Virus record (IMG/VR): IMGVR_UViG_3300028381_000007
Coordinates: 4,167-68,166 of that record
Direction: 5' to 3' (one strand)
Source of the DNA: a virus
Lineage: Duplodnaviria; Caudoviricetes
DNA length: 64,000 bases
The position numbers were made by a program, and so were the translations under genes. The notes beneath the pieces were generated by a model. The model had not been told where the DNA came from. It searched no databases and worked only from the letters and a program-made list of their open reading frames with translations. Of this stretch, positions 9,546-37,431 are shown piece by piece (within the stretch, counting starts at the first letter, position 1; the number at the start of each line of letters is the position of its first letter).

Positions 9546-11237
9546 CTATGACGCGCGACGGTGACGGCGCGGCGCCGCCCGTCCTTGTCTCCGAGCTGGG
9601 GCCTTCGACAACGGCGCTCGCTCTTCGGCCTGGACAGGAAGGTCCAATTGCTTCGTCTTGCTGCGCGCCGCCTTCGGAGGGGCGCTATAGGTCACATTTA
9701 CCTGACGGGAAGGGGGATAGTCGATCCTTGCGCCATTTAGGAGTTCCCCAATCGTCAAAATTTGCAGGCGAGGATGTTTCCCCCAGGGCGATTCATAGAA
9801 CCCGGCAGAGGCGGCCTTTCGCATCGCCGACGTTGGCGGCTGAAGAGTAATGAACACGCCGAGCTGAGCCTTTTCCTGTTCCATCGCGCCGTGGAGACTT
9901 TGAATGTGTGCTGGCGAAACATGGCCGGACTTCACTTGAAACACGATTTGCTTTGTGTCGCCGCTGTCGTCGTCGTGAAAGTACAAGCGACCATCGATGC
10001 CCCGGTCTGCGCCCTTCTTTGGACTGGCCGGCCGTGCGTCAACGAGACTGAGCGCCCACCACTCGAATTGATACGGGCTCTCGAGGGCGAGCGCTTCCGC
10101 GTCGGCGGGAGACGTTGGCTCACCGATCACCTTATAGGGAAGGACGCCCAGCCGTTTCTTAATCACAGCGATGGCCGCTTGCGTAATGTCGATTCCTACC
10201 CACCGCCGATTCAGCTTCTCGGCGACAGCAACCGCCGTCCCGCAGCCGCAGAATGGATCGAGGACGGTATCTCCTTCATTGCTGCTCGCTCGTATGATCC
10301 GCTCTAGTAGAGCCTCCGGCTTCTGGGTTGCATAGCCCAAGCGCTCGCGTGAACCTGCCTGAAGGCGAATGTCTGTCCAGACATCCTGTAGCGGAACGCC
10401 TGGCATCTCGTCGAGATAGCGTTTGTATACCGGCATCCCGGTCCGCCGGAAGACGATGCGCCCCTCGGATAGAAACTTATCCAGATTGGCCTTGGAAAAG
10501 GCCCAGTGCCGGCCCCGGTATGGTTTCATGCCGTGCCATTCGTAGTCCACGTCACCGCCTGGCTTATGAGCCGTCAGATCACTGACGCGATAGCGGCGTC
10601 CACTCCCCTCTTCCACGTACCGATAGTTCTCATCGACATAGTCAGGCTCGAATGGACCATATTGCGGATGCCACGTGAACACCGGGCCGCGCGTATAAAA
10701 CAGCAAGACATCGTGAGTTCGCCCATAGCGCCGCGGATCATTCTTCCCGCTGAAACGCTTCCAAGACAGTTCGTTCTGAAAATTCCTGGGATCAAAGACG
10801 GCGTCCATCAGAATCTTGAGGTAGTGGCTGGCGGTGGGGTCACAGTGTAAATAAATCGAGCCCACGGGCTTCAGCACTCGATGAAGCTGCTTCAGCCTCG
10901 GCGCCATCATCGTGAGGTACGCCAGAAGATCGCTCTTTGGGAAGAGCGAGTGAAAGGCTTGCATGGCTTGGGAGAGCGGCCCGCCAGTCGTTACGAGTTC
11001 TTCGTAGAGACGCTCCGTCGCCGTCCCCCACTCCCATGTATCCTCAAAGGCTTGGATCTGGGCGACGGCGTGGGCCCCGGTCCTTTCCTTGAAGAGGACG
11101 TTGTATTCGCGATTGCTGTTGAATGGTGGATCGAGGTAAACAAGGTCGACCGATTCATCTTTGATGTAGCCGGGGCGCGTGAGGATATCGAGGTTGTCCC
11201 CGTAGTAGAGCGTGTTCTGGGGCTCGGGGACGTCCAC
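9546..11237 (-). CDS. beta-class N6A/N4C DNA methyltransferase fused to Mrr-like endonuclease domain
   Basis: LYYGDNL, DPPF (motif IV), YATQKPEALL, DPFCGCGT (motif I); C-terminal DRGIDG...QVKSG. Confidence 0.9.
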   Translation of the reverse strand: MDVPEPQNTLYYGDNLDILTRPGYIKDESVDLVYLDPPFNSNREYNVLFKERTGAHAVAQIQAFEDTWEWGTATERLYEELVTTGGPLSQAMQAFHSLFPKSDLLAYLTMMAPRLKQLHRVLKPVGSIYLHCDPTASHYLKILMDAVFDPRNFQNELSWKRFSGKNDPRRYGRTHDVLLFYTRGPVFTWHPQYGPFEPDYVDENYRYVEEGSGRRYRVSDLTAHKPGGDVDYEWHGMKPYRGRHWAFSKANLDKFLSEGRIVFRRTGMPVYKRYLDEMPGVPLQDVWTDIRLQAGSRERLGYATQKPEALLERIIRASSNEGDTVLDPFCGCGTAVAVAEKLNRRWVGIDITQAAIAVIKKRLGVLPYKVIGEPTSPADAEALALESPYQFEWWALSLVDARPASPKKGADRGIDGRLYFHDDDSGDTKQIVFQVKSGHVSPAHIQSLHGAMEQEKAQLGVFITLQPPTSAMRKAASAGFYESPWGKHPRLQILTIGELLNGARIDYPPSRQVNVTYSAPPKAARSKTKQLDLPVQAEERAPLSKAPARRQGRAAPRRHRRAS

Positions 11238-13363: not shown

Positions 13364-14863
13364 TTAGGGTGCGGCCGTCAGCAGGAGGGCGCCGTCGAGC
13401 GACAGCGCCACCGTCGCGGGGGTTGCGCCGGGCGCGAAGCGCTGGCAGCGCAACGTGAACAGCACATTAAAGGCCGGACGGGGCACCTTCGTGCTTCCGA
13501 GGATCTGTTCTTTCCCATTCACGACCTTGACGATCCGTCCCGCGCTCGTGCCACCCATGAGCCGCACGCAGCGGTACGGGAGCAGGTCGATCGCGACGCG
13601 CGTGTCTGTCGTGGTTCTGCGGACAAAGGTCCGCGTCACGTCGTCCGCGGTGGGCGGTGGCGGGGGCGGTGGTGGTGGGGGTGGACCGACATTCGTCCCC
13701 ACCGTGACCTGCGCCGAGGTGGCGTCGTAGCGATCGAGCCGCATCGAGACCTGGCTGACCGGATCCGTCCAGAGCCGATCGAGCACGAGGCCCGGCGCCG
13801 CCCAGTTGCTTGGGCTCATCACCAGCATCGCAATCCCGTTGGCGCTCGGGGTCGCGAGATGCACGATGAGGCCCTCGGGTCGATGCTCGAGCCAGAACAC
13901 GTCGCTGCCCGTGCCCCGCGCAATCCGGAGCGCGCGCGGCGTCGTGAGGAGCGTGGGGAGTGTATAGGTGCCGGCCGTCGCCAGCTCCGGCGTGAGCCAG
14001 CCCATCAGCGCTTTCTGCGCGGCGTTGAAATGTCCCGTGGGGAGACTCCCCCCGCCCATCACGTCGAGGGTGTCGCCGTACTCGATCATCGCGCAGCCCG
14101 CGCCCACGGTGCCGATCGCCTCCGCGCCGCACGCGAGCGCGTGCGAGTGGTAGCTGCCGAGCCCGTGGCCGAGCTCGTGCGCGGTGACCATGCCCGAGAC
14201 ATTGCCGTTCACCCACGACAGGCTCGGGCTGCCGCCGACGGTGCTCACTCCGGCGAAGCCGCAGGGCAAAGCGGGGAAGAAGTAGACCTTGTGCAGGTAC
14301 GGCGCGAGCGCGCCTTTGGCCGCGGCATCGGCCTTCGCACCGATGTCCCGATAGTTACAGTCCGTCCGTACCGGGATCGTGACGGGAACCACGTCGATCG
14401 CCAGCGTGAGCTGGCCGTAGGAGTTGGCCGCATAGAAGGACGCGATCTGCTGGACCAGGCCCGCCGGCAGCACCGAGGGCCGCCCCGGGAACGACACCGG
14501 GACGAAGGCCGTGGGGTGCCGCCCGCCGACGAGCGGCGCGGCCGCGGCGGCCTTCCGCTGCGTGAGCGGCTCGATGCGCCACGTAGGCGCGGCCGCAACG
14601 CCCGTCGTGGTGCTCTTGCGGACGACGACCTGGGTGGCGAGCACCCGGTCCCCGTGCTGGATATCCGTCCGATACGGTGCGGTGCCAGACGCAACGAGGA
14701 ACCGCCCGCCCGTGTCGGGCCGCACGTAGGTCTCGAACCGTGAGACCCGCTGGCCCTTCGTGATTCGGTCGGCGTGGAGGACCTCGGCGGTCCCGGTCAC
14801 GGCGGCATGCGCGAGGCCGGGAAAGAGCAGCAGCAGGAGGAGGAGCAGGGTGAATGTCTTCAT
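13364..14863 (-). CDS. secreted zinc metalloprotease, gametolysin/peptidase M11-like
   Basis: Signal peptide; HELGHGLGSYH zincin motif; EYGDTLDVMG Met-turn; HFNAAQK. Confidence 0.85.
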   Translation of the reverse strand: MKTFTLLLLLLLLFPGLAHAAVTGTAEVLHADRITKGQRVSRFETYVRPDTGGRFLVASGTAPYRTDIQHGDRVLATQVVVRKSTTTGVAAAPTWRIEPLTQRKAAAAAPLVGGRHPTAFVPVSFPGRPSVLPAGLVQQIASFYAANSYGQLTLAIDVVPVTIPVRTDCNYRDIGAKADAAAKGALAPYLHKVYFFPALPCGFAGVSTVGGSPSLSWVNGNVSGMVTAHELGHGLGSYHSHALACGAEAIGTVGAGCAMIEYGDTLDVMGGGSLPTGHFNAAQKALMGWLTPELATAGTYTLPTLLTTPRALRIARGTGSDVFWLEHRPEGLIVHLATPSANGIAMLVMSPSNWAAPGLVLDRLWTDPVSQVSMRLDRYDATSAQVTVGTNVGPPPPPPPPPPPTADDVTRTFVRRTTTDTRVAIDLLPYRCVRLMGGTSAGRIVKVVNGKEQILGSTKVPRPAFNVLFTLRCQRFAPGATPATVALSLDGALLLTAAP

Positions 14864-14871
14864 GAGGATCC

Positions 14872-15063
14872 TCATTTCGGCGGCAGGACCGTGGCGATGC
14901 CGAGCGCGCACGCGCTCACGCTGGCGTTGCTACGATGCTCGTCGAGCTGGCGGACCAGGAGCCGGCGCACCTTGTCGCATTGCTCGGCCGTCTCGTTCTC
15001 CACGCGCACGACGACGGGCGCGCCGAAGAGGAGCGGGAACACCACGAGAAAGAGCCAGGTCAT
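14872..15063 (-). CDS. small exported protein
   Basis: Hydrophobic N-terminus, two Cys; ATGA coupling. Confidence 0.6.
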   Translation of the reverse strand: MTWLFLVVFPLLFGAPVVVRVENETAEQCDKVRRLLVRQLDEHRSNASVSACALGIATVLPPK

Positions 15064-15809
15064 CGCGCTGCGGCCTGCGCTCGGGCGAGGTCGGCCACCG
15101 CTTGCTGATGGATCAGCAGGTCACCCGGGGACTTCGTCCGCTCCGCGTCGCGCCTGGTCATGCTCACGAGCGTCTGCAGCGTCAGGATGAGCTGCTCCTG
15201 CACGGTGGGCAGGGGCTTGCCCGCGCGCGCCGTCGCCGCGTCGAGCTGAGCCTGGACTGCGGTGGCCCGATTGTCGTCACTCACCTGCGACTGGACCTGC
15301 TCAACGGTGAGCGCGGAGGCCTCCGCCTTGGTTAGCTCTCCGAGGGCTTGCTCATACATAAGCCGGTCGGAGTCCGTGCCGGTGCGGTCGAACTCCTTCT
15401 TCGTCACGGTCACCAAGAGGCGCAGCACCGTCAGCAGCCGGCTGTTCACCAGGAGGTGAATCTCCTGGATCTTCTGGTCGCGCAAGACGCCTACCGCGGC
15501 CGCGGCGACCTGACCGGTGACGACGATGCGCTTCGTATCGCGGAGCGCGGCCGTAATCTTGATCACCCCCGTCACCAGGGCTCCGATGATCGCGACGACC
15601 GCCGTCGCAAAGGCCGCGATCATCGCCGGCGAGATGCCACTCACGACGGCGGCCGGTAGCGGGAGCGGGTTGACAATCACGGCGGCCACCGGCGGGCCCG
15701 CGGGCACGGGCGGGACTGGAGCCGCGGCCAGCACCCAGCTTATCGGGCCGATCGCGGCAACGACGATGACGATGAGCGCGGGTCCTATGCGGAATGACCG
15801 ACCTGGCAT
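15060..15809 (-). CDS. membrane protein with two hydrophobic segments (holin or i-spanin candidate)
   Basis: AAGGAGG SD before ATG 15809; two TM segments then coiled-coil region. Confidence 0.6.
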   Translation of the reverse strand: MPGRSFRIGPALIVIVVAAIGPISWVLAAAPVPPVPAGPPVAAVIVNPLPLPAAVVSGISPAMIAAFATAVVAIIGALVTGVIKITAALRDTKRIVVTGQVAAAAVGVLRDQKIQEIHLLVNSRLLTVLRLLVTVTKKEFDRTGTDSDRLMYEQALGELTKAEASALTVEQVQSQVSDDNRATAVQAQLDAATARAGKPLPTVQEQLILTLQTLVSMTRRDAERTKSPGDLLIHQQAVADLARAQAAAR

Positions 15810-15896
15810 GCGGGGCCTCCTTGTGACCAACCAAGGCGGCCCCACCGCGCGGCTCGTCGGGATGGTCCCCGAGAGCGGGGGTGTGGGGCGGGCTTG
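15810..15896 (-). ncRNA. structured 5' leader, copy 2 of an SD-sequestering switch motif
   Basis: CAAGCCCGC-CCCAC...GCUCUCGGG(GACCAU)CCCGACGAGC...GUGGGGCCGCCUUG-N8-CAAGGAGGCC; homologous to 36703-36781. Confidence 0.7.
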
Positions 15897-15953
15897 AAGC
15901 GGGGGTTCAGGGATGAGTCTACGCTGATTCCCTCGGGACTAGGCGATCTCCTT

Positions 15954-18900
15954 TCACGGGGGCGCCAGGTCGCCCATTCGATAGCTCGCCCACCGGATGA
16001 CCGGCGTCCCGTCGGCATCGAGGACGATCGCCGGGAGCGGCTTGAGCACGGCCGGCAGCTCCGGATCGGTCAGGCTCGCGCGCTTCGGAAACGCGGCCTC
16101 ATCCTGAAACCCGACCCGCGGCTCGTTGGCATCCAGCCAATCGAGGAAGTGATGGCCGCCGACCTCGCGCCGGTCATAGAGCGACTGGACGTCCCCCTGG
16201 TTGCCGAGACGGAGAAACGAGGCCGCAGAGTCGCTCGTCCGGTAGGCGAGGGTCAGCGCGTCGGTCTCCGCATGGAGGACCGCGTCGCCGAGGTTCCACG
16301 GCTCGTAGTCGACGCCGGCGGAGACCTGGACCGTCGTGGCCGTGGCGAGCGGGGCGCCCGCCGCGGGCAGGTGCGTCACCCAGACACCGCCCGCGGCGAA
16401 GTCGGTCCAGACGACGAAGTCCTGGGTCCACTGGAGGGGATAGAAGATCGGCTCGTGGAGCGGCCACTCGAGATCGAGGCCGAAGAAGAAGCGCGTGTAG
16501 TTGGCCAGCGGCCGAATGGCGTGCGTCTCCTGCGTCTGCGGGTTGTAGAGAAAGAGCCCGGCCTGCCGGAGCCGCGTCGTTGGCTGCACCGGTCCAAAGC
16601 TCGCCTCCTCGGGCTGCAGCTCAACATTGACGAGAAGGAGGGTCGGCGTCGTCCCGGTCCAGCGGAGCGGCAGCGCGCTCACGTAGCTGTTGTGGACCTT
16701 GAAGGTGTGGAGCAGCGTGGCGCCATATTTCAGATACATGAAGGCCGGCCCGAGGAAGAAGTAGGCGTGCGCGTCGACCTGGCGCGGCGTCTCGCGGTGG
16801 AAGTACTGCAGCGCGCGCGCCGGCAGGTAGGGCGGGAGCGTCTCCGGGAACAGGTCGCCCCGCATCGTGGCGCGGACGCCGTTGTGATAGCCGAGCTGGA
16901 AGGAGAAGCAGCTCCCCTCGCCGACGTTCCCGAGGTCCGCGGCCTGGCCGGGCGCGGGGACGTCCGACTCATACCGAAGATCCGGAATCAGATCGATGAG
17001 CGTCGGGGGCGTTGCGCCCCCCGGCTCGTAGAGCCAGGTCACCGCGCCCGGGAGCCCCTCGAACTTGAGCTGGAGCCGGTTGGTACCGACGAGGTCGTTG
17101 ACAGCTGGCAGTGGCGCGGCGAAGGTCCACACGCCCGTTGTCGTCGCACTCAGGGGATCGCCGAAGCTCTCCGAGATCTGCGCCCGGGTGAACCAGAGAT
17201 CGCTCGCGTAGTCGAGGAGCACCCCACGCGAGAAATCGTACGAGCCCCACAGCAGTCGCCAGCCGGGCGCGGGCGTGCTCGCGTCGAGGAGCAGCATGGC
17301 GGTGTGGGACTCGGAGAGCGCGAAGCGGCTGAACCCATTGCTGCCCGTCGCATGGTAGCCGAGGAAGTAGGCGTCGGGGTCGTCCGCACCGATGGTGCGC
17401 TGTGGGGGACTGCCGACGTTCCGCAGGCCCGGCTTCCAGCGGCACTGCGTGACCTGCGCGGCCGCGAAGCCCACCGTGCCGACCACTGCCGTGTTGTTGT
17501 CAATGCCGAGCTGATTCGCGGAGCCCGGCGCCGTGCGGAAGTTCTGCTCCAGCCCGAGCCAGTAGTGGGTGCCGATCGGGTGCGGCATGGGCCCGCCCGG
17601 ATCCAGGCCGGTGAGGAGACTGCCGGCGCCCGTCGGCGCGCCGACGTCCACGTAGCCCTGCATCATCACACCGAACGTCGGGTCCGGTCCCTCGAGCGCG
17701 GTGATGTCGGCGACCAGCGCGTCCGTGTAGACGTTCGGCGTCTCCGAGCGATAGATCCGGTAGCGCGCGGCATGCGGGACGCGGTCCCAGCGGAGCTGCA
17801 CGGTGCGCGTGATCGCGTAGGGCGGGACGCCGAATGTCGCGGTATTCGTCCCGCCATCGGGACAGGTCCGGTAGACGTCGAACTCACAGGACACGGCGAG
17901 TGAATCCCCGTCGGCGTCCAGGGCCTCCACGCGGTAGTAGCGCGCCACCGCGGACGTCCAGACGCCGCCCGTACCCTCGCCCAGGAGCCACGCGCGGAGC
18001 GAGAACTGCCCGCCGCGGTGTGTCTCCGCGCCATTGAAGGCGAACCAGAGCGTGACGGCGAGCTGCCATGCGTCGTCGACGACCGCGCTCGCGACATAGC
18101 CCGTCAGGTGCCCCGTGCGGAAGCGGGCGCCGTCCCCGAAATGCTGCGGCGGCTGCGTCACACCATTGCCCGCACGGTAGAAGGCCGCCGGCCCGAGCAC
18201 GACGTGCATCTGGCTGCGCCGCGCATAGCTGCCGTCCATCGGCTGGACGTCGTCGACGACCGCATGCGAGGGCACGCCGGGCGCCGCCGGGACAAAGCGG
18301 ACGGTGTAGTTGCGCCGGTTCCCCGAGAGGCGGTGCTCGAAGGTGGCCACGCCGAGGTCAAACTCCGCGACGCCCACGGGCTCGAGGCGCTTGAGCAGCA
18401 CGGCCGGCAGAATCCTGAGGCGCTTGAACACGCCGGCGGCGGTGGCCGTACGGACGAGCTGGAACACGGCGAAGTAGGCGCCCGGGGGCCCGCCGAGCTC
18501 GACGTGAAAGCGATCGGCCTTCGTGCCCCACCGCACGCGCATGAGCTGCTCGGCCAGGTTCACGCCGGCGAAGACCGGGTGCGTGATCGGCCCGCGCGCC
18601 GCGAGGGCGCCGCGCACGTTCAGCGGGGCGCACAGGACATCGTTGCGGAACCAGACATCGAGCTGTCCGGTCTCGTCGAGCGCGATGAAGAGCTCCTCAA
18701 CGGCGCCGGCCACCACGAGCACCGAAGGCGGCCCTCGCAGCACCGGGGGCGGCCCCTCGCGCTTCTGATGCGCGAGCACGACCGCCGGCTTCACGCCGTG
18801 CTGCCCCGGCGCGAGATTCGCGCGGCTCCAGAGCACCGGGACCGTCGTGCCCGCCTGCACCCCGCGCACGTCCCCCGAGGTGCGGAGCGTCGCATCGCCG

Positions 18901-19031
18901 ACCTGTAGGTCGCCGTTGCCGAGCACGGCGTCCACGGACTCCTGGGTCACCTGCTTGCGCTTCGCCTGCCCGAAGCCGATATATTGCAGCGCGAGCTGCA
19001 CGGCGCGGCTGAGCGTCGGACTGTCGGGCAT
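15954..19031 (-). CDS. large tail/receptor-binding virion protein (~1025 aa) with FN3-like segment
   Basis: Position in tail module; N-terminal OB-like VDAVLGNGDLQV; VQLRWDRVPHAARYRIYRS; beta-rich. Confidence 0.65.
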   Translation of the reverse strand: MPDSPTLSRAVQLALQYIGFGQAKRKQVTQESVDAVLGNGDLQVGDATLRTSGDVRGVQAGTTVPVLWSRANLAPGQHGVKPAVVLAHQKREGPPPVLRGPPSVLVVAGAVEELFIALDETGQLDVWFRNDVLCAPLNVRGALAARGPITHPVFAGVNLAEQLMRVRWGTKADRFHVELGGPPGAYFAVFQLVRTATAAGVFKRLRILPAVLLKRLEPVGVAEFDLGVATFEHRLSGNRRNYTVRFVPAAPGVPSHAVVDDVQPMDGSYARRSQMHVVLGPAAFYRAGNGVTQPPQHFGDGARFRTGHLTGYVASAVVDDAWQLAVTLWFAFNGAETHRGGQFSLRAWLLGEGTGGVWTSAVARYYRVEALDADGDSLAVSCEFDVYRTCPDGGTNTATFGVPPYAITRTVQLRWDRVPHAARYRIYRSETPNVYTDALVADITALEGPDPTFGVMMQGYVDVGAPTGAGSLLTGLDPGGPMPHPIGTHYWLGLEQNFRTAPGSANQLGIDNNTAVVGTVGFAAAQVTQCRWKPGLRNVGSPPQRTIGADDPDAYFLGYHATGSNGFSRFALSESHTAMLLLDASTPAPGWRLLWGSYDFSRGVLLDYASDLWFTRAQISESFGDPLSATTTGVWTFAAPLPAVNDLVGTNRLQLKFEGLPGAVTWLYEPGGATPPTLIDLIPDLRYESDVPAPGQAADLGNVGEGSCFSFQLGYHNGVRATMRGDLFPETLPPYLPARALQYFHRETPRQVDAHAYFFLGPAFMYLKYGATLLHTFKVHNSYVSALPLRWTGTTPTLLLVNVELQPEEASFGPVQPTTRLRQAGLFLYNPQTQETHAIRPLANYTRFFFGLDLEWPLHEPIFYPLQWTQDFVVWTDFAAGGVWVTHLPAAGAPLATATTVQVSAGVDYEPWNLGDAVLHAETDALTLAYRTSDSAASFLRLGNQGDVQSLYDRREVGGHHFLDWLDANEPRVGFQDEAAFPKRASLTDPELPAVLKPLPAIVLDADGTPVIRWASYRMGDLAPP

Positions 19032-19032
19032 G

Positions 19033-19560
19033 TCAGCGCCCCGGCGTCCCGAGCACCAGCCACCCGCCCGCATCGGTCTGAATCGCGTAGACGGGGCCGC
19101 CCGCGCGGAAGCGCTCGGTGGTCGCCGCGCCCGCGAGCACCGTCCCGAGCCGGGGATGCGCGAGATGGACGAGGAGCCGCCCATCGGCGAACACGGCCTC
19201 AATGGTCCCGCGTCGGAGGATCTTCTGCTGGGCCGTGATCAGCCGCGTTACGGCGGCCGCGAGCGTCGGCGACGGCAGCGCGCTCGAGGGCGCCGGCCCG
19301 CTGACCGGCAGGCCCAGGGCCCCGCGATCGGCCGCGGCCCCAGGCCCCAACACGACCCAGGCGCCGTCATCGGCCCACGCCAGGAGGACCGTCTCGCCGG
19401 CGCGAAAGACATGGTCGATGATGGCCACGGCGATCAGCGCCGTGCCCTTCGCGGTGACGAAGAGTCGGCCGTCCGCGGTGACAGCCTCGAGCGTGCCCGT
19501 GAGCAACACTTCCCCTTGGAGCTTCGACAGCGCCCCGGTGATGGTCTGGGCGGCGATCAT
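19033..19560 (-). CDS. tail-tip protein with two OB-fold-like repeats
   Basis: GTLEAVTADGRLFV...FRAGETV...WVVLG and GTIEAVFADGRLLV...FRAGGPV...WLVLG. Confidence 0.65.
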   Translation of the reverse strand: MIAAQTITGALSKLQGEVLLTGTLEAVTADGRLFVTAKGTALIAVAIIDHVFRAGETVLLAWADDGAWVVLGPGAAADRGALGLPVSGPAPSSALPSPTLAAAVTRLITAQQKILRRGTIEAVFADGRLLVHLAHPRLGTVLAGAATTERFRAGGPVYAIQTDAGGWLVLGTPGR

Positions 19561-20003
19561 CCGAGGCGCAGGAAAGTGTGCTGGGCGATGCGCACCGTCA
19601 CGCGATCTTCTGAAAACCAGGCGGGCAAGTCATGGTGCTCGCGGCCCTCGCGCGTGACGATCTCGTTGAGGTAGTATCCCGCGCCCTGCGTTGGGTCCGG
19701 GAGGAACGCCCAGTAGGCCGCCGCCATGGCCCACCAACAGCGGTCCCATGCGACGGTGTCCAGCCGCGCGAGCCGCGCCTCGGCCGAGGCGGGGATCGTC
19801 CAGCACGAGAACTGGGCCGGCGCCAAGATGACCGTGGCAATGCTCTGGTCGCGACGGACCATGCGGTTCTTGATGACCCAGGCGACCGCGAGCTTCCCCG
19901 CGTCGGGCTCGCCGCCCGCCTCGAGGTAGACCGTGGCGGCGTAGAGCGTCAGCTCCGGCCAGAAGGGATGGGCGCGCGTGAGGTCGGGCCGCGGCGCGAT
20001 CAT
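19557..20003 (-). CDS. SleB/Hydrolase_2 cell-wall hydrolase (endolysin or tail lysin)
   Basis: ATVYLEAGGEP...AVAWVIKNR...VILAPAQFSCW...DPTQGAGYY. Confidence 0.9.
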   Translation of the reverse strand: MIAPRPDLTRAHPFWPELTLYAATVYLEAGGEPDAGKLAVAWVIKNRMVRRDQSIATVILAPAQFSCWTIPASAEARLARLDTVAWDRCWWAMAAAYWAFLPDPTQGAGYYLNEIVTREGREHHDLPAWFSEDRVTVRIAQHTFLRLG

Positions 20004-23000
20004 GGCGGGGTCCACGCCAGCGCCTTGATCGCGCGCGCGACGGAAACGTTGACGGAACTTTCGTCATGGGTGAGCTGGAGCGACTGGACCAGGAACGACG
20101 GGGGCAACGCGATGACGCCGCCGCGCTCGTCGTGCAGCTCGACGATGGCCATCAGCGACCCGCGGTGCAGCCAGGGGACATTGACTCCGGTGAAGCTCGC
20201 CTCGTGCTGCCAGGCGCCACTGACGCCCGCGGCGAGCTGCGCGGCGATCAGATCGAGCGTGGCCTGATCCAGGTTCGCGTCGCTATAGCTGAGCGGCGGC
20301 GCCGTCGGGTCCGGATCGATGATCAGATCGACCAACGCGAACACGGGCTCGGTCGGGGGTGGGATCGCGACGGGCCGGGGGAGGATGCGCAGCTGGCGTG
20401 TCGCCGTGACCGCCTTGTAGGTGACCGGATCGTCGGGCGTGAAGGTCGCCGTCAACGTCGCGGACTCCGAGCGCTCCGTCCAGACGACGGTCCCGTCGGC
20501 GACCGTAGCCCCAGGCTCCGTGATCCCCACGAGCGGGCTCGCGCCCGGATCCGTCGTGCCGGGCGCGGTGCAGACGAAGACCAGCGTGCCCTCCTGCACC
20601 GTGTCTCCATTCGCGTAGATCTCGCCCGGCAGGCGCGCGCCCTTGCTCGCCTGGACGAGGCCGAACGCGATAACAGTCCCGGAGGGCGGCGAGAAGTCGA
20701 ACGTCCCGGCGACCGGCAGATGCGCGTCGTCCGGGGTGACCGCCGTCGCGCTGAGGGTGAGCACCTCCCCCACCATGAGCGAGCCCGGCGGCGTCCACCG
20801 GATCTCCGGCGTGAGCCCGGTGTGGGCCGTGCCAGCGTCTATGCGCAGGTCGCGCCTGGCCTCCTTCATCGTGTATGTGGACGCATCCGGCGTGAAGAAC
20901 GCGACCATCGTGAGGCGGTCCGCTTGCTCGCGCCAGACGACGGTGTTGTCGACCACGGTGATGCCGGGCGTGACGTCGACCGCGCCGAACGGGTCGCCGC
21001 CACCGCTGGTCCCGGGCGTCGTACACACGTAGAAGTGCCCGCCGACCTGCGCGGTCGGCGCGACGGTGTCCCCTGTCGCGTAGATCTCCCCCGGTTGCCA
21101 CGGCCCGCGCGACGCGGTGACCAGCCCAAGGCCGAGGACCGTCCCCGGACCGGGGCTATACGCAAAGGTGCCGGCGACCGGAGTGTGCGCAAGCGTCGTA
21201 TCGACCGCTGTCGCGTTCAAGGCCGGATCGATCACCGCGCCGGCCAGGAGCGAGCTGGGTGGCGTCCACCGAATCTCGACGTCGGCCGGCTTGACCGTCA
21301 CGCGCACCGTGACGGTGACCGGCTCGAACGCCGTGTTGGCGGGGGTGAACACCACGGCGAGCGGCTGTGCCTCGCCCGGGAGGAGCACCGTTCCCGCGGC
21401 GGGCGTGTAGACGAAGGTCCCCTCCATGTTCGCGCGCGCATCGAGCTGCGGGGTCGGCGTCCCGGGTGGCGGGTTGTCCTGGAGCTCGGTCAATGCGGTC
21501 GGCCAGGTCATGTCCGCGGGATCGTTCCACGTGACTTTCGCGACCTTGGCCCCGGGCACGGGCCCCTCGCCCGCGCCCGCCGCGCCCCCCGAGCGAATGC
21601 CGCCGGGCCGCGTGCCCGAGGCAATGGACACGCCGCTCTGCGCGGCCTGCCAGACCCAGTGGAATTGATTCGTGGCCGCGCCACGCTCCCATGCGAACGT
21701 ATCGACGTAGACTGCATAGAAGTCCGGCCCCTGGTCCTGGTAGCGCGTCACGACGAGCTGGCTCGGCGCGAGCGGCAAGTTCACCTCGCCGGTGATAATC
21801 AGCTCCGCCCCGGGTGAGGCGTCGAGCTCCGCCTTCCACTGGGTCTGCGTTGTCATGGTCAGCAGACGCAGCGTGTCGTAGGCCTGAATGGTGAGGGAGC
21901 GCTGCTGCGTCACCTTGTCCGGGTGCCCCTGGACGGAATCCGTCTGCTCGCGGAGCTTCAACGGCTGATTGACCGGACCATCGGGCCCGTAGATCGACGG
22001 CTCCCAGGTCGTAGTGATGACACTGCGGTTCACAAGCCCTGAGGTACCGAAGAAGAACCCAACCAGGGCGGAGGCATAGGTCTCCGTGATCGCGGAGACG
22101 AGCAGCTTGTCCGGCATGCGATACGTCGACACGGCCGTGACCCGGCCGACCTCGCGCCCGGCATCGTCCTGCACGACATCGCTGGTCCGGATTGTCAGCG
22201 ATTCCCCGGGCCGATAGGGCGGGGCCGGGGACGCGGGCATCGCGAGGAGCAGCGTCGAGCCATCGAGCAGCGTCACCGTCCCGACACCGAGCACCGCGCC
22301 GAGGGATGTCACGACGGAGACGAGCACTGTCTCGTCCGCAAGCTGTGCCGTGGGCGTCGCGACGCTGCCCGCGGGAATCGCCACCGTCGTCGTATCGAGC
22401 AGGCGCAAGGTGCCGCCGGTCAGCGTCGCGGCGCCCAGCGGATCCCCGGCGCCGGGGTTCGTGGCCGGCGTCGCATCGAGGCGCATGCCTCGCAGCGTCA
22501 GGTGGCCAATGCGGTCCGTGCGGAACTTCCGGAGCCGCAAGCTCTTGATGCGCAAGTCGCGCGCCGCGAAGGTGTTGACGGCGGGCGCCACCGGCGCCGG
22601 GAGCGGCCGCTGGCGGCAGATGACGGTGCGCCCCTCGAGAAAGACGTCGACCTTGCGGGCCTCGCGCAAGGAGAACGGGCGCACCAGCTGAAGCAGCACA
22701 TCAATAGGCCGCCCCACGGCATTGACGCTCTCGTGAACGGCGTAGTCGGGACATTCCCAGGACAGCGCGAGCCCGGCGCGCTGGACGACGAAGGTGGCAA
22801 TGTCACTGGCCCAAAAGAGCCCATACGCGATCGGGACAGTCACCTCGCCGGAGATCACCTCGGGCGGGGGGCCGTTCTGAAAGATCTGGCTGACCTGGGT
22901 GTCGAGCAGGCGCGCCATGGGATCGCGGCCCTTAATCGTGCCGGTGATCCGCGTGGGCTCGACGGTGAGGGCGTACTCGTCGATGCTGCCGCCGTCGATG

Positions 23001-35733: not shown

Positions 35734-36702
35734 TTAACTGACCACGCTGTTGAACATGTACCCGAGGTCCGCGGCGACCTTCTTGTTCGCGAACGCCATT
35801 TCTGCCTCGATCCGTTCCGCGCCCAGGCCGAGCAGCGGGATCGGAATCCGGTACACGACACTTGGGGTCCCCATGCCTCCGGCGATCCCACGCCACCAGA
35901 ACTGATACCCGGCGGAGGGCGCCATGAGGCTCGGGCTGTCCGCCGAGTAGGCGAGCAGCGCCGACTTGCCGAGCGCGAACGCGTACGCCTCGGCCGCGCC
36001 CTCGTTGTTCGTCGCTTTGATCGCCCGGGCGACCAGCACGCGCTTGAGCCCGAAGATCTTCGCCAGCGTCTGCTCGTTGACGAGCGCCGGATTCTCCGCG
36101 CTCGAGGAGCCGTACTTGATCCGGTCAACGATGTCCGGGTGGTCGATCAGCTTCTGATAGACCTGGTACCCAAGCACCAGCGTGTTCGGCTCGTACCCGG
36201 TCGTGCCGAGCACGGTCGCCATGCCGGTCCGGATGTCCCCAATCGGGTCCGACGTGGCGTAGTTGTCCCACAGCGTGGGCGTGATGTCCGTCCCCCAGAT
36301 GCCGGTGCCGAAGAAGTCCGTCACCCACTGCAGCTCCTGACGCAGGAGGATCTTCTGGGTCACGAAGAGCGTCGCGTCCCGATCCATATCGATCGGCGCA
36401 TCGGCGTTCGCGCGCTCTTGCGGGCCCACATCCTTGTGATACGCGTACACTTCGGCGGTGTAGCTGTCCGTGGTGAGGTTGTATCCCCCGCCCGCCGACT
36501 CCGTCAGACTCGCGCGCGGCTTGGCCTCGTCTCGGAACCAGTCGTTCTTCGTGTATTTCCAGAAGAGATCGCTCTTCTTCTCCACGGGCACCCGTGGGAA
36601 CACCTTGCTCGCGATGAAGTTGTTCTCGTCCTGGATATACGCGACCGAGATCTGTGTGAGGATCCGATCGATGTGGACCTGACTGACGGTCGGCTGCGGC
36701 AT
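35734..36702 (-). CDS. major capsid protein (HK97 fold)
   Basis: MPQPTVSQVHIDRILTQISVAY...IASKVFPRVPV...DPIGDI; strong SD; 322 aa. Confidence 0.92.
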   Translation of the reverse strand: MPQPTVSQVHIDRILTQISVAYIQDENNFIASKVFPRVPVEKKSDLFWKYTKNDWFRDEAKPRASLTESAGGGYNLTTDSYTAEVYAYHKDVGPQERANADAPIDMDRDATLFVTQKILLRQELQWVTDFFGTGIWGTDITPTLWDNYATSDPIGDIRTGMATVLGTTGYEPNTLVLGYQVYQKLIDHPDIVDRIKYGSSSAENPALVNEQTLAKIFGLKRVLVARAIKATNNEGAAEAYAFALGKSALLAYSADSPSLMAPSAGYQFWWRGIAGGMGTPSVVYRIPIPLLGLGAERIEAEMAFANKKVAADLGYMFNSVVS

Positions 36703-36781
36703 GGTGACGGCCTCCTTGAGTTGTTCAAGGCGGCCCCCACTGCGGCCCGGAGGGTCCCGGGCGGATGTGAAAGCGGGCTTG
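36703..36781 (-). ncRNA. structured 5' leader, copy 1 of an SD-sequestering switch motif
   Basis: CAAGCCCGC-UUUCAC...GCCCGG(GACCCU)CCGGGC...GUGGGGGCCGCCUUG-N7-CAAGGAGGCC then capsid ATG. Confidence 0.7.
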
Positions 36782-36793
36782 CGCGATCCGTAT

Positions 36794-36985
36794 CTAGTGC
36801 GTCAGGTGTTGCCACTTCTCCGCGATGGCTTGAATCCCACGTGCATGGCGCAGGAGACCATTGGCCAGCTCTCGTTCCTCTTGCGACTGCGGCCTCCGCT
36901 GCGCGGCGACCGCGAACAATTCCATCGCGACGGCCTGCTCGCCAAACTGCAGCAGGGGCGTGGACGCCGTCGCGGTGCCGGCCAT
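36794..36985 (-). CDS. small hypothetical protein
   Basis: 63-aa ORF filling the gap in the head operon. Confidence 0.5.
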   Translation of the reverse strand: MAGTATASTPLLQFGEQAVAMELFAVAAQRRPQSQEERELANGLLRHARGIQAIAEKWQHLTH

Positions 36986-36990
36986 CGCGT

Positions 36991-37431
36991 CTATGACGCC
37001 TCAGGGGACTTGGGGGGCATCGTGAGCCGGAGCGTCGAGCCGTCGGCCTCCGTTACCGTTCCGGTCCCGAGGGGCTCACCTGAGGGTGTCACGACGGAGA
37101 CGAGCACCGTGCCGTCGGCCAGCTGGACGGCGGGCGTCGCGACGCTGCCCATGGTGATGGCCACGATGGTCCCGTCGGCGGTCCGCAAGCTCCCGCCACG
37201 ATCGAGAATGACCGACCCCGGCGCGTGCGGCTGGATCCCGATGGGCTCCGACGCGGGGATCGGCAGCCCGTCGTCACGCGCATCGTAGGTGATGCGATGC
37301 GCGAGGCTGTCGTGCCCCGCCTCCCGAAGACGCTCGAGGGTCTCGGCGAGGATGCGATCGACGTCGCCCGCCGCCTGGTTCCGGTTCGCCCCGGCTCCCG
37401 AGATCGTGATCGTCCAGACGTTGCGCGGCAT
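36991..37431 (-). CDS. hypothetical head-operon protein sharing a ~60-aa module with the tail hub protein
   Basis: GSVATPAVQLADGTVLVSVVT vs GSVATPTAQLADETVLVSVVT. Confidence 0.65.
   Translation of the reverse strand: MPRNVWTITISGAGANRNQAAGDVDRILAETLERLREAGHDSLAHRITYDARDDGLPIPASEPIGIQPHAPGSVILDRGGSLRTADGTIVAITMGSVATPAVQLADGTVLVSVVTPSGEPLGTGTVTEADGSTLRLTMPPKSPEAS

Follow-up and report, generated by a model that had tools for sequence, protein, structure and literature searches.

A conserved three-strand mRNA leader before the capsid gene of a soil phage and its second copy before a post-tail gene chain: a candidate translational switch

In an uncultured tailed phage, the minus-strand stretch at 15810..15896, hereafter copy A, lies directly 5' of a membrane-protein gene and belongs to a conserved mRNA leader acting in cis, of which it is a true paralogous copy, the other one (copy B) preceding the major capsid gene. 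On comparative sequence grounds, the leader is a conserved RNA family, new to Rfam, where both of two alternative helices are under selection, with compensatory changes. As regards its function, the reading retained here, with a probability of about 0.6, is that of a translational switch, in which pairing of strands Y and Z would constitute the default OFF state and pairing of strands X and Y an ON state held by a trans-acting factor. The phage corresponds to a 68,166-bp virus record of IMG/VR (IMGVR_UViG_3300028381_000007), rated complete by CheckV and for the most part covered by the window, i.e., the whole 64,000-nt stretch of DNA analysed. It is present in rhizosphere and soil metagenomes, all the sequencing runs listed being of rhizosphere or soil DNA.

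The leader family and its two copies in one phage

All genes near both leaders are carried by the minus strand, in the order head genes, capsid, tail genes and post-tail cassette. Read from 15896 to 15807, this strand has the architecture put forward in the original prediction, namely (i) a strand X (15877..15896), (ii) a hairpin P2 (15852..15876), (iii) a strand Y (15832..15851), (iv) a Y-Z loop of 8 nt (15831-15824, read from the sequence), and (v) a strand Z (15807..15823), and its twin is found at 36781-36703, before the capsid gene. Strand X, the anti-sequestor or initiation-region decoy, was delimited by folds and X:Y pair counts and comprises CAAG-CCC-GCC, an upper CCCAC and a C-rich inner module; its lower and upper parts read CAAGCCCGCCCCAC (15896-15883), then comes the linker ACCCCC. 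In the fold, P2 corresponds to GCUCUCGGG[GACCAU]CCCGACGAGC, a sequence in which the family members differ. Strand Y, the anti-TIR, can be the partner of X or of the SD, spacer and AUG, as judged from folds and pair counts, and has the core GUGGGGCCGCCUUG (15845-15832), preceded by the linker CGCGCG. Strand Z is the translation initiation region, with CAAGGAGGCC at 15823-15814, the spacer CCGC and the AUG at 15809.

Copy B extends over 36703..36781 (minus strand), directly 5' of the major capsid protein gene (35734..36702, minus strand; phrog_1005, E 2.9e-85). The pattern GGCCGCCTTG-N(4-14)-CAAGGAGG is encountered at two places in the window and likewise in the whole 68-kb record, and in 0/100 shuffles. 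The claim that the arms of copy A are identical to those of the capsid copy stands for the 10-mers of Y and Z but not for those of X, which agree at 9/10 positions. In local alignment, the likeness of A and B is confined to the leader, and the flanks align no better than shuffles; because the similarity ends at the leader borders, the duplicated unit appears to be the leader itself and not a gene fragment. Selection on the arms with diverged linkers, as originally proposed, agrees with what is seen in the family, since the seven leaders differ in P2 and in their loops and since, in 97%-identical relatives (three rhizosphere or soil contigs) that keep copy A, the sole change is 1 nt in the P2 loop.

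Among 65 IMG/VR loci with a capsid homologue inspected for the leader, it stands directly before the capsid start in three (L003, L029 and L064), where L003 is the syntenic complete relative G001, with a capsid identity of 67%. Pattern scans of genomes and metagenomes, where nearly all the matches listed were due to chance, gave two real ones (L259 and L309), both from the metagenome scan. Altogether, among the matches listed, seven distinct leaders are available from six uncultured phages, with a GC content of 53-72% and a capsid identity of 50-67%, and make up the alignment (A2), a small sample. A capsid gene follows the leader in the five other phages, and copy A is the sole non-capsid case among the leaders found. 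A covariance model built on all seven leaders (R1) and applied to the window, to all of G001 and to 53 more loci, most of them with a capsid gene, gave 63-90 bits for the members, i.e., 67.8 bits for copy B and 63.6 bits for copy A, and at most 18 bits for everything else. The scan for further copies that had been proposed was also performed with a second model (R2) trained on L029, L064, L259 and L309 alone, this phage and G001 being left out; copies B (32.1 bits) and A (30.8 bits, E 8.5e-7) came first and second in the window and the G001 leader reached 22.1 bits, with the best background at 16.6 bits. Copy A carries the family blocks X (CAAGCYCGC), Y (GCCRCCUUG) and Z (SD) in the right order and at the right spacing, and departs from the family in its context, as it stands before a membrane-protein gene with no small ORF on its 5' side, where instead a tail gene ends 57 nt upstream.

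As for the boundaries of the family, the window had no match in Rfam 15 at the gathering score, and around both copies nothing relevant appeared at E up to 10. A strict pattern scan of IMG/VR returned the known phages and one chance coding match (L069), and a scan for Y, Z and ATG gave nine further matches, of which 0/9 had an X strand. Three candidates were rejected as leaders, namely L146 and L163 (Bosea-type), which precede a rhodanese-like gene, and L286. In IMG/VR, loci whose capsids are closely related to those of L259 and L029 lacked the leader, and no leader-like DNA was seen in isolated phages with the capsid family (from Arthrobacter, Roseobacter, Pseudomonas and others, all below 50% identity). 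Of note, a 2023 catalogue of structured-RNA candidates from IMG/VR mentions unnamed candidates 5' of a T7-type capsid gene, which belongs to a different capsid family (PMC10690425).

Alternative pairings, covariation and energetics

Considering the family as a whole, X is the 5' half, composed of CAAG-CCC-GCC, a variable upper strand and YCCGC; P2 is a hairpin whose length and sequence both change among members; the 3' half is formed by Y, composed of GGCYGC(A), a complementary upper strand and GCCRCCUUG, after which comes a loop of 5-8 nt; and Z is the initiation region, with CAAGGAGG, a spacer and AUG(CC). The partners of Y, X or Z, are mutually exclusive, the X:Y pairing leaving the SD free and the Y:Z pairing covering SD, spacer and AUG. 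Strand X is a decoy of Z, with CCCGC for GGAGG and, in the capsid copies, a non-start triplet for AUG (AUC in copy B, where X reads CAAGCCCGCUUUCAC-AUCCGCC versus CAAGGAGGCCGUCACCAUGCCGC for Z).

This alternative pairing, by which the SD would be hidden or freed, was the core of the original prediction, and it proved conserved and covarying across phages. On an unfitted MAFFT alignment, X:Y is paired at 92.6%, with four pairs changed on both sides, a covariation score reached by 0/500 shuffles and slid controls that collapse; Y:Z is paired at 86.5%, with three pairs changed on both sides and a score reached by 5/500 shuffles, and in RNAalifold the Y:Z helix reaches the start codon. The upper X:Y stem, for instance, is CCCAC/GUGGG in copy A, UUUCAC/GUGGGG in copy B, CGCAAAU/AUUUGCG in L029, UGAGU/ACUCA in L064 and GCAUAU/AUAUGC in L259. 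The spacer between SD and AUG is altered in each phage in such a way that it pairs with the same Y strand. The arms are spaced by 35 to 47 nt among leaders, and G.U pairs in copy B and L003 point to a feature of the RNA of the gene strand and not to a DNA repeat. X:Y contains two instances of one module, one in the lower stem and one at the P2 base, each with a C-G pair between two mismatches. In the lower module these are C.C mismatches, with C residues invariant in all seven leaders, and in the inner module the first mismatch is Y.C in two leaders (U.C in copy B). The lower module of L064 has U-A instead of C-G as its middle pair, the flanking C.C being kept and the facing SD adenine still being mismatched in Y:Z.

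In computed folds, the minimum-energy structure in full context is, for seven of seven leaders, P2 plus Y:Z, with SD and start hidden. The Y:Z state lies below the SD-free state by 8.5-20 kcal/mol in all seven, bearing in mind that nearest-neighbour energies of C.C modules are uncertain, and direct-path barriers amount to 5-6 kcal/mol from ON to OFF and to 14.5-24.7 kcal/mol from OFF to ON. As the chain is lengthened, X:Y is given up in the computed fold within a few nt of the SD end, and in L064 the computation prefers another fold already before the SD is included. The initiation regions gated by leaders have a mean unpaired probability of 0.13-0.31, among the least accessible of the 33 compared, the lowest of all being that of copy A (0.13); for 26 leaderless homologues, the median is about 0.5 and the lowest value 0.21. 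Given the Y:Z ground state and the low barrier towards it, the naked leader RNA should, according to this modelling, be OFF; and as X is conserved nonetheless, X:Y would have to be populated transiently or with help.

The companion small ORF and the gene chain behind copy A

A candidate for such a helper is encoded next to copy B, where an ORF of 63 aa (36794..36985, minus strand) ends 12 nt before the leader, has a coding-type codon GC and is predicted as a helical hairpin (AF2 pLDDT 83, two helices), a generic fold with no significant PDB match. An ORF of this kind, of 49-76 aa, is present at all six capsid leaders (6/6), where it ends 3-20 nt before X; its place is between a decoration-like gene and the capsid leader (in the other phages, L003:2721-2900, L029:2769-2915, L064:2672-2899, L259:3950-4102, L309:2272-2427). 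These small ORFs, confined to the leader-bearing phages, have in common a weak helix of LLRxxKGxxAxxEKW type, are 19-53% identical and Cys-free, and belong to no Pfam or PHROG family; neither a Cys4 motif nor an RNA-binding family or fold was found in them. In leaderless relatives, the decoration-like gene is directly 5' of the capsid gene, and in the nearest sisters (L010, L022/L023 and L021) both small ORF and leader are absent. In the capsid tree, a quick search covering L003-L063 plus L259, the leader-bearing phages do not form one clade, and at least three gains or losses are needed. By their joint presence and absence, small ORF and leader behave as one module, and this distribution suggests that the module moves between lineages or is lost repeatedly. 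Since copy A has no adjacent small ORF, the acting agent would be either diffusible or intrinsic to the RNA.

In the same region, the ORF of 176 aa located 5' of the small ORF and the capsid gene contains a domain of about 60 aa in common with a 1209-aa tail protein, and is without counterpart in G001. A direct repeat of 183 nt with 72% identity links 22235-22417 to 37015-37197.

Upstream of copy A, the last tail-type gene (15954..19202, minus strand; 1082 aa, with an N-terminus homologous to a tail-region ORF of G001) has its stop 57 nt 5' of the leader. Within the interval (15897-15953, minus strand), an SD-like AAGGAG directly follows the tail-gene stop, with no usable start codon behind it, and a GTG frame of 12 codons ends 22 nt before X of copy A. 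Downstream, the gene content announced by the original prediction was recovered, i.e., a gene for a protein with two hydrophobic segments, then the M11 peptidase, DUF3309 and lipobox protein genes. The first one (15060..15809, minus strand) encodes 249 aa, in which the N-terminal hydrophobic segment is joined by a Pro-rich linker to a second transmembrane segment, with a twice-repeated helical domain at the C-terminus; it matches no Pfam or PHROG family and is a candidate lysis-associated membrane protein. Its internal duplication involves residues ~118-165 and 203-248 (LLxxLxxLVxxxKKE/RDAERT...), and other phage contigs hold versions of 140-164 aa with one repeat and one transmembrane segment. 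The start, the misplacement of which would have undone the proposed gating, is likely the ATG at 15809, with the SD AAGGAGG at 6 nt on its 5' side, the same call on three independent metagenome contigs and a coding-type GC3 over the first 58 codons. An ATGA overlap couples this gene to an ORF of 63 aa (14872..15063, minus strand), itself ATGA-coupled to the gene of a secreted M11-like metallopeptidase (13364..14875, minus strand; Pfam PF05548, E 1.6e-9); 3' of the latter come a secreted 165-aa protein, DUF3309 and the lipobox protein. Owing to these ATGA overlaps, control exerted on the first gene would extend to the two genes after it at least. The post-tail cassette ends with 9546-11237 (minus strand), which encodes an N6/N4 DNA methyltransferase (PF01555) fused to an Mrr-type restriction-endonuclease-like domain.

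Homologues of the 249-aa protein are few, with 97%-identity copies on three contigs, and in the Protein Atlas it retrieved unnamed viral clusters only, below the lead threshold. The homologue in L327, 43% identical and with a single transmembrane segment, comes after tail genes and is ATGA-coupled directly 5' of an SLT lytic transglycosylase gene, which favours a lysis-associated role for the 249-aa protein. From such gene neighbourhoods, the post-tail cassette is plausible as a lysis cassette; this label, given by the original prediction, gains only from the L327 homologue coupled to an SLT endolysin and loses from the window's own hydrolase being elsewhere. The latter, a cell-wall hydrolase (19557-20015, minus strand; PF07486 Hydrolase_2, E 3e-13), is encoded between two large tail genes, 3.7 kb upstream, whereas in G001 the homologue (49% identity) belongs to the post-tail cassette, 3' of the M11 peptidase, so lysis and tail modules are arranged differently in the window and in G001. 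As to the leader, neither the L327 nor the L328 homologue has one upstream, and G001 has neither a 249-aa homologue nor a second leader. The absence of the motif from homologous phages, which would have counted against the element, thus applies to L327, L328 and the syntenic G001 at that place but not to the near-identical relatives, the only ones to keep it, and copy A is, in the loci compared, specific to one phage lineage.

Switch mechanism, competing readings and meaning

In the translational switch proposed, Y would pair in the OFF state with Z, which comprises the SD (CAAGGAGG) as well as spacer and AUG, so that 30S binding is blocked, and in the ON state with the decoy X, so that the SD is freed. 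A trans-acting factor would clamp X:Y and thereby turn the leader ON; most likely a phage protein, it would probably contact the two conserved C-G modules with their flanking mismatches, and the leading candidate would be the small helical protein encoded directly 5' of every capsid copy. As copy A has no neighbouring small ORF, the factor would act there in trans, and translation of the capsid gene and of the chain of 249-aa, 63-aa and M11 genes could thus be co-timed; from the likeness of the two leaders, both probably answer to one common translational signal. Several findings weigh against a switch, namely that the factor must supply 8.5-20 kcal/mol or act kinetically, that the very high output needed for the capsid is odd with a default-OFF leader, that G001 manages without a second copy, and that the small ORFs are alike only weakly. 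A portable activator-operator module, passed between phage lineages, would go further and is, as a whole, unlikely: acting perhaps as a dimer, the small protein would clamp the tandem modules and so permit translation of a default-OFF message, the operator would have been copied to the holin-like chain, and capsid and lysis-related membrane proteins would be released by the same late protein signal, in what would be a translational late-late checkpoint.

Among the other readings, a kinetic timer would require no factor at all, with X:Y forming first in the course of transcription and closure of Y:Z being delayed, so that loading of ribosomes would be limited to mRNA still being made or under continuous translation; after closure, a message would be permanently silent, and the output per transcript both limited and timed. 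The OFF state being the ground state in seven of seven leaders fits this view, as do the missing small ORF next to copy A and the barriers, of which the 5-6 kcal/mol towards OFF imply that closure takes between milliseconds and tenths of a second, like 30S loading, with 14.5-24.7 kcal/mol for the reverse. A delay on the millisecond scale would, however, poorly protect a gene of which hundreds of products are needed per virion, and the timer explains neither the invariant C residues of the mismatches nor the joint gain and loss of small ORF and leader; it is considered a doubtful account. With a lower chance still, the leader would be an element of mRNA processing or stability, i.e., an RNase III-type site or a protective 5' hairpin parting the mRNA of the capsid gene (and of the cassette) from a polycistronic late transcript, where pairing with the SD would be secondary. 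Such an element would make sense of the irregular duplex of about 20 bp present in both states and of the location of both copies at operon junctions after long upstream genes, where promoter and terminator scans near the leaders came out empty, but it has no need of a precise pairing with SD, spacer and AUG or of a covarying decoy strand, nor of a spacer-Y pairing re-created by different sequences in each phage.

The tandem C.C / C-G / C.C modules could also be viewed as a sensor of a ligand, an ion or pH, where binding or protonation (C.C+) would stabilise X:Y. The C residues of the lower module, invariant in 7/7 leaders though unpaired, and the double occurrence of the module are what speaks for a riboswitch of this sort; these modules are the conserved unpaired features in an alignment of seven sequences only, too few to dismiss a minimal pocket, P2 and the loops being variable. 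Conversely, no conserved junction, loop or pseudoknot is seen, P2 changes in length and sequence, Rfam gives no match, and the invariant C residues may simply avoid an SD-like decoy; this sensor is considered quite improbable. Least probable is a non-functional duplication remnant or an inverted repeat acting in the DNA (operator or recombination site), for which X resembles Z as from a duplicated initiation region and copy A is lineage-specific, but which hardly accommodates conservation with compensatory changes at 50-67% capsid identity and 53-72% GC, strand-specific G.U pairs, the variable arm spacing (35-47 nt) and flanks that are not duplicated.

Further candidate mechanisms were tried and rejected. 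Ribosome coupling from the upstream stop is unlikely as a common mechanism, the stop-to-X spacing being too variable, with 3-20 nt in the capsid copies versus 57 nt in copy A. An intrinsic terminator or attenuator was discarded as there is no U-tract hairpin, Y being followed by GGUUGGUCA in copy A and by AACAACU in copy B. An RNA thermometer of ROSE or fourU type was dismissed as well, the sequestering fold being the minimum at 37 C, with whole-leader energies of -28 to -45 kcal/mol, and lying 8.5-20 kcal/mol below the open state. As for a trans-acting complement, sequences able to pair with Y or X are no commoner elsewhere in the window than expected by chance when coding repeats for Lys-Ala-Ala are taken into account.

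The translational switch, as the preferred reading, can be set against several known systems. In phage Mu, Com is a protein of about 62 aa with a Cys4 zinc finger, which binds an RNA element adjoining the occluded mom SD and start on the 5' side. By its action, translation of the mom mRNA is activated (PMC6483171). The leader resembles this system in that SD and start are, as computed, occluded by mRNA structure and in that a small phage ORF is nearby, a candidate only as regards binding, but the product of the small ORF is devoid of Cys and predicted as a helical hairpin, a decoy strand is absent in Mu and the RNA sequences are unrelated. In the expression platform of translational riboswitches, one strand has the choice between the SD and a competitor located upstream. 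The same three-strand logic of sequestor and anti-sequestor is found here, but no conserved aptamer is attached to the leader, the tandem C.C modules being its sole conserved unpaired features. The leader of the MS2 maturation gene allows translation only until a delayed RNA folding is completed, with a very low output of a minor protein; likewise, the equilibrium fold here hides the SD and a transient fold would give time for ribosome loading, but the leader here mainly serves the virion protein made in the largest amount, and sequence and structure are unrelated. In the lambda S holin gene, the sdi stem-loop tunes initiation and selects between two start codons. There as here, the RNA is structured where a membrane-protein gene begins, a gene known to set lysis timing in lambda and a candidate for it here; unlike the leader, sdi has no decoy/anti-TIR pair and is not common to a capsid gene. 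In the fold-back inhibition of IS10 and IS50, an upstream complement sequesters the transposase initiation region on some transcripts, the outcome being set by the transcript start; an upstream complementary sequence covers the initiation region here as well, but the leader keeps an extra competitor strand, X. To our knowledge, an initiation-region decoy with tandem C.C modules, a companion ORF and re-use before a second gene chain has not been described in the systems compared.

Interest in the leader is tempered by its rarity and by the small alignment, and should the trigger prove only kinetic, or the element serve in processing, the leader would still represent a new, modest RNA family. 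As a compact three-strand switch of about 80 nt with a candidate partner of 49-76 aa, it might serve as a regulatory part. Late gene control in tailed phages is usually ascribed to transcription, i.e., to late promoters and antitermination, and we know of no description of a translational late-late checkpoint in these phages. If the switch reading is true, a conserved and apparently mobile leader would close the capsid message by default and would thereby constitute a translational layer of late timing.
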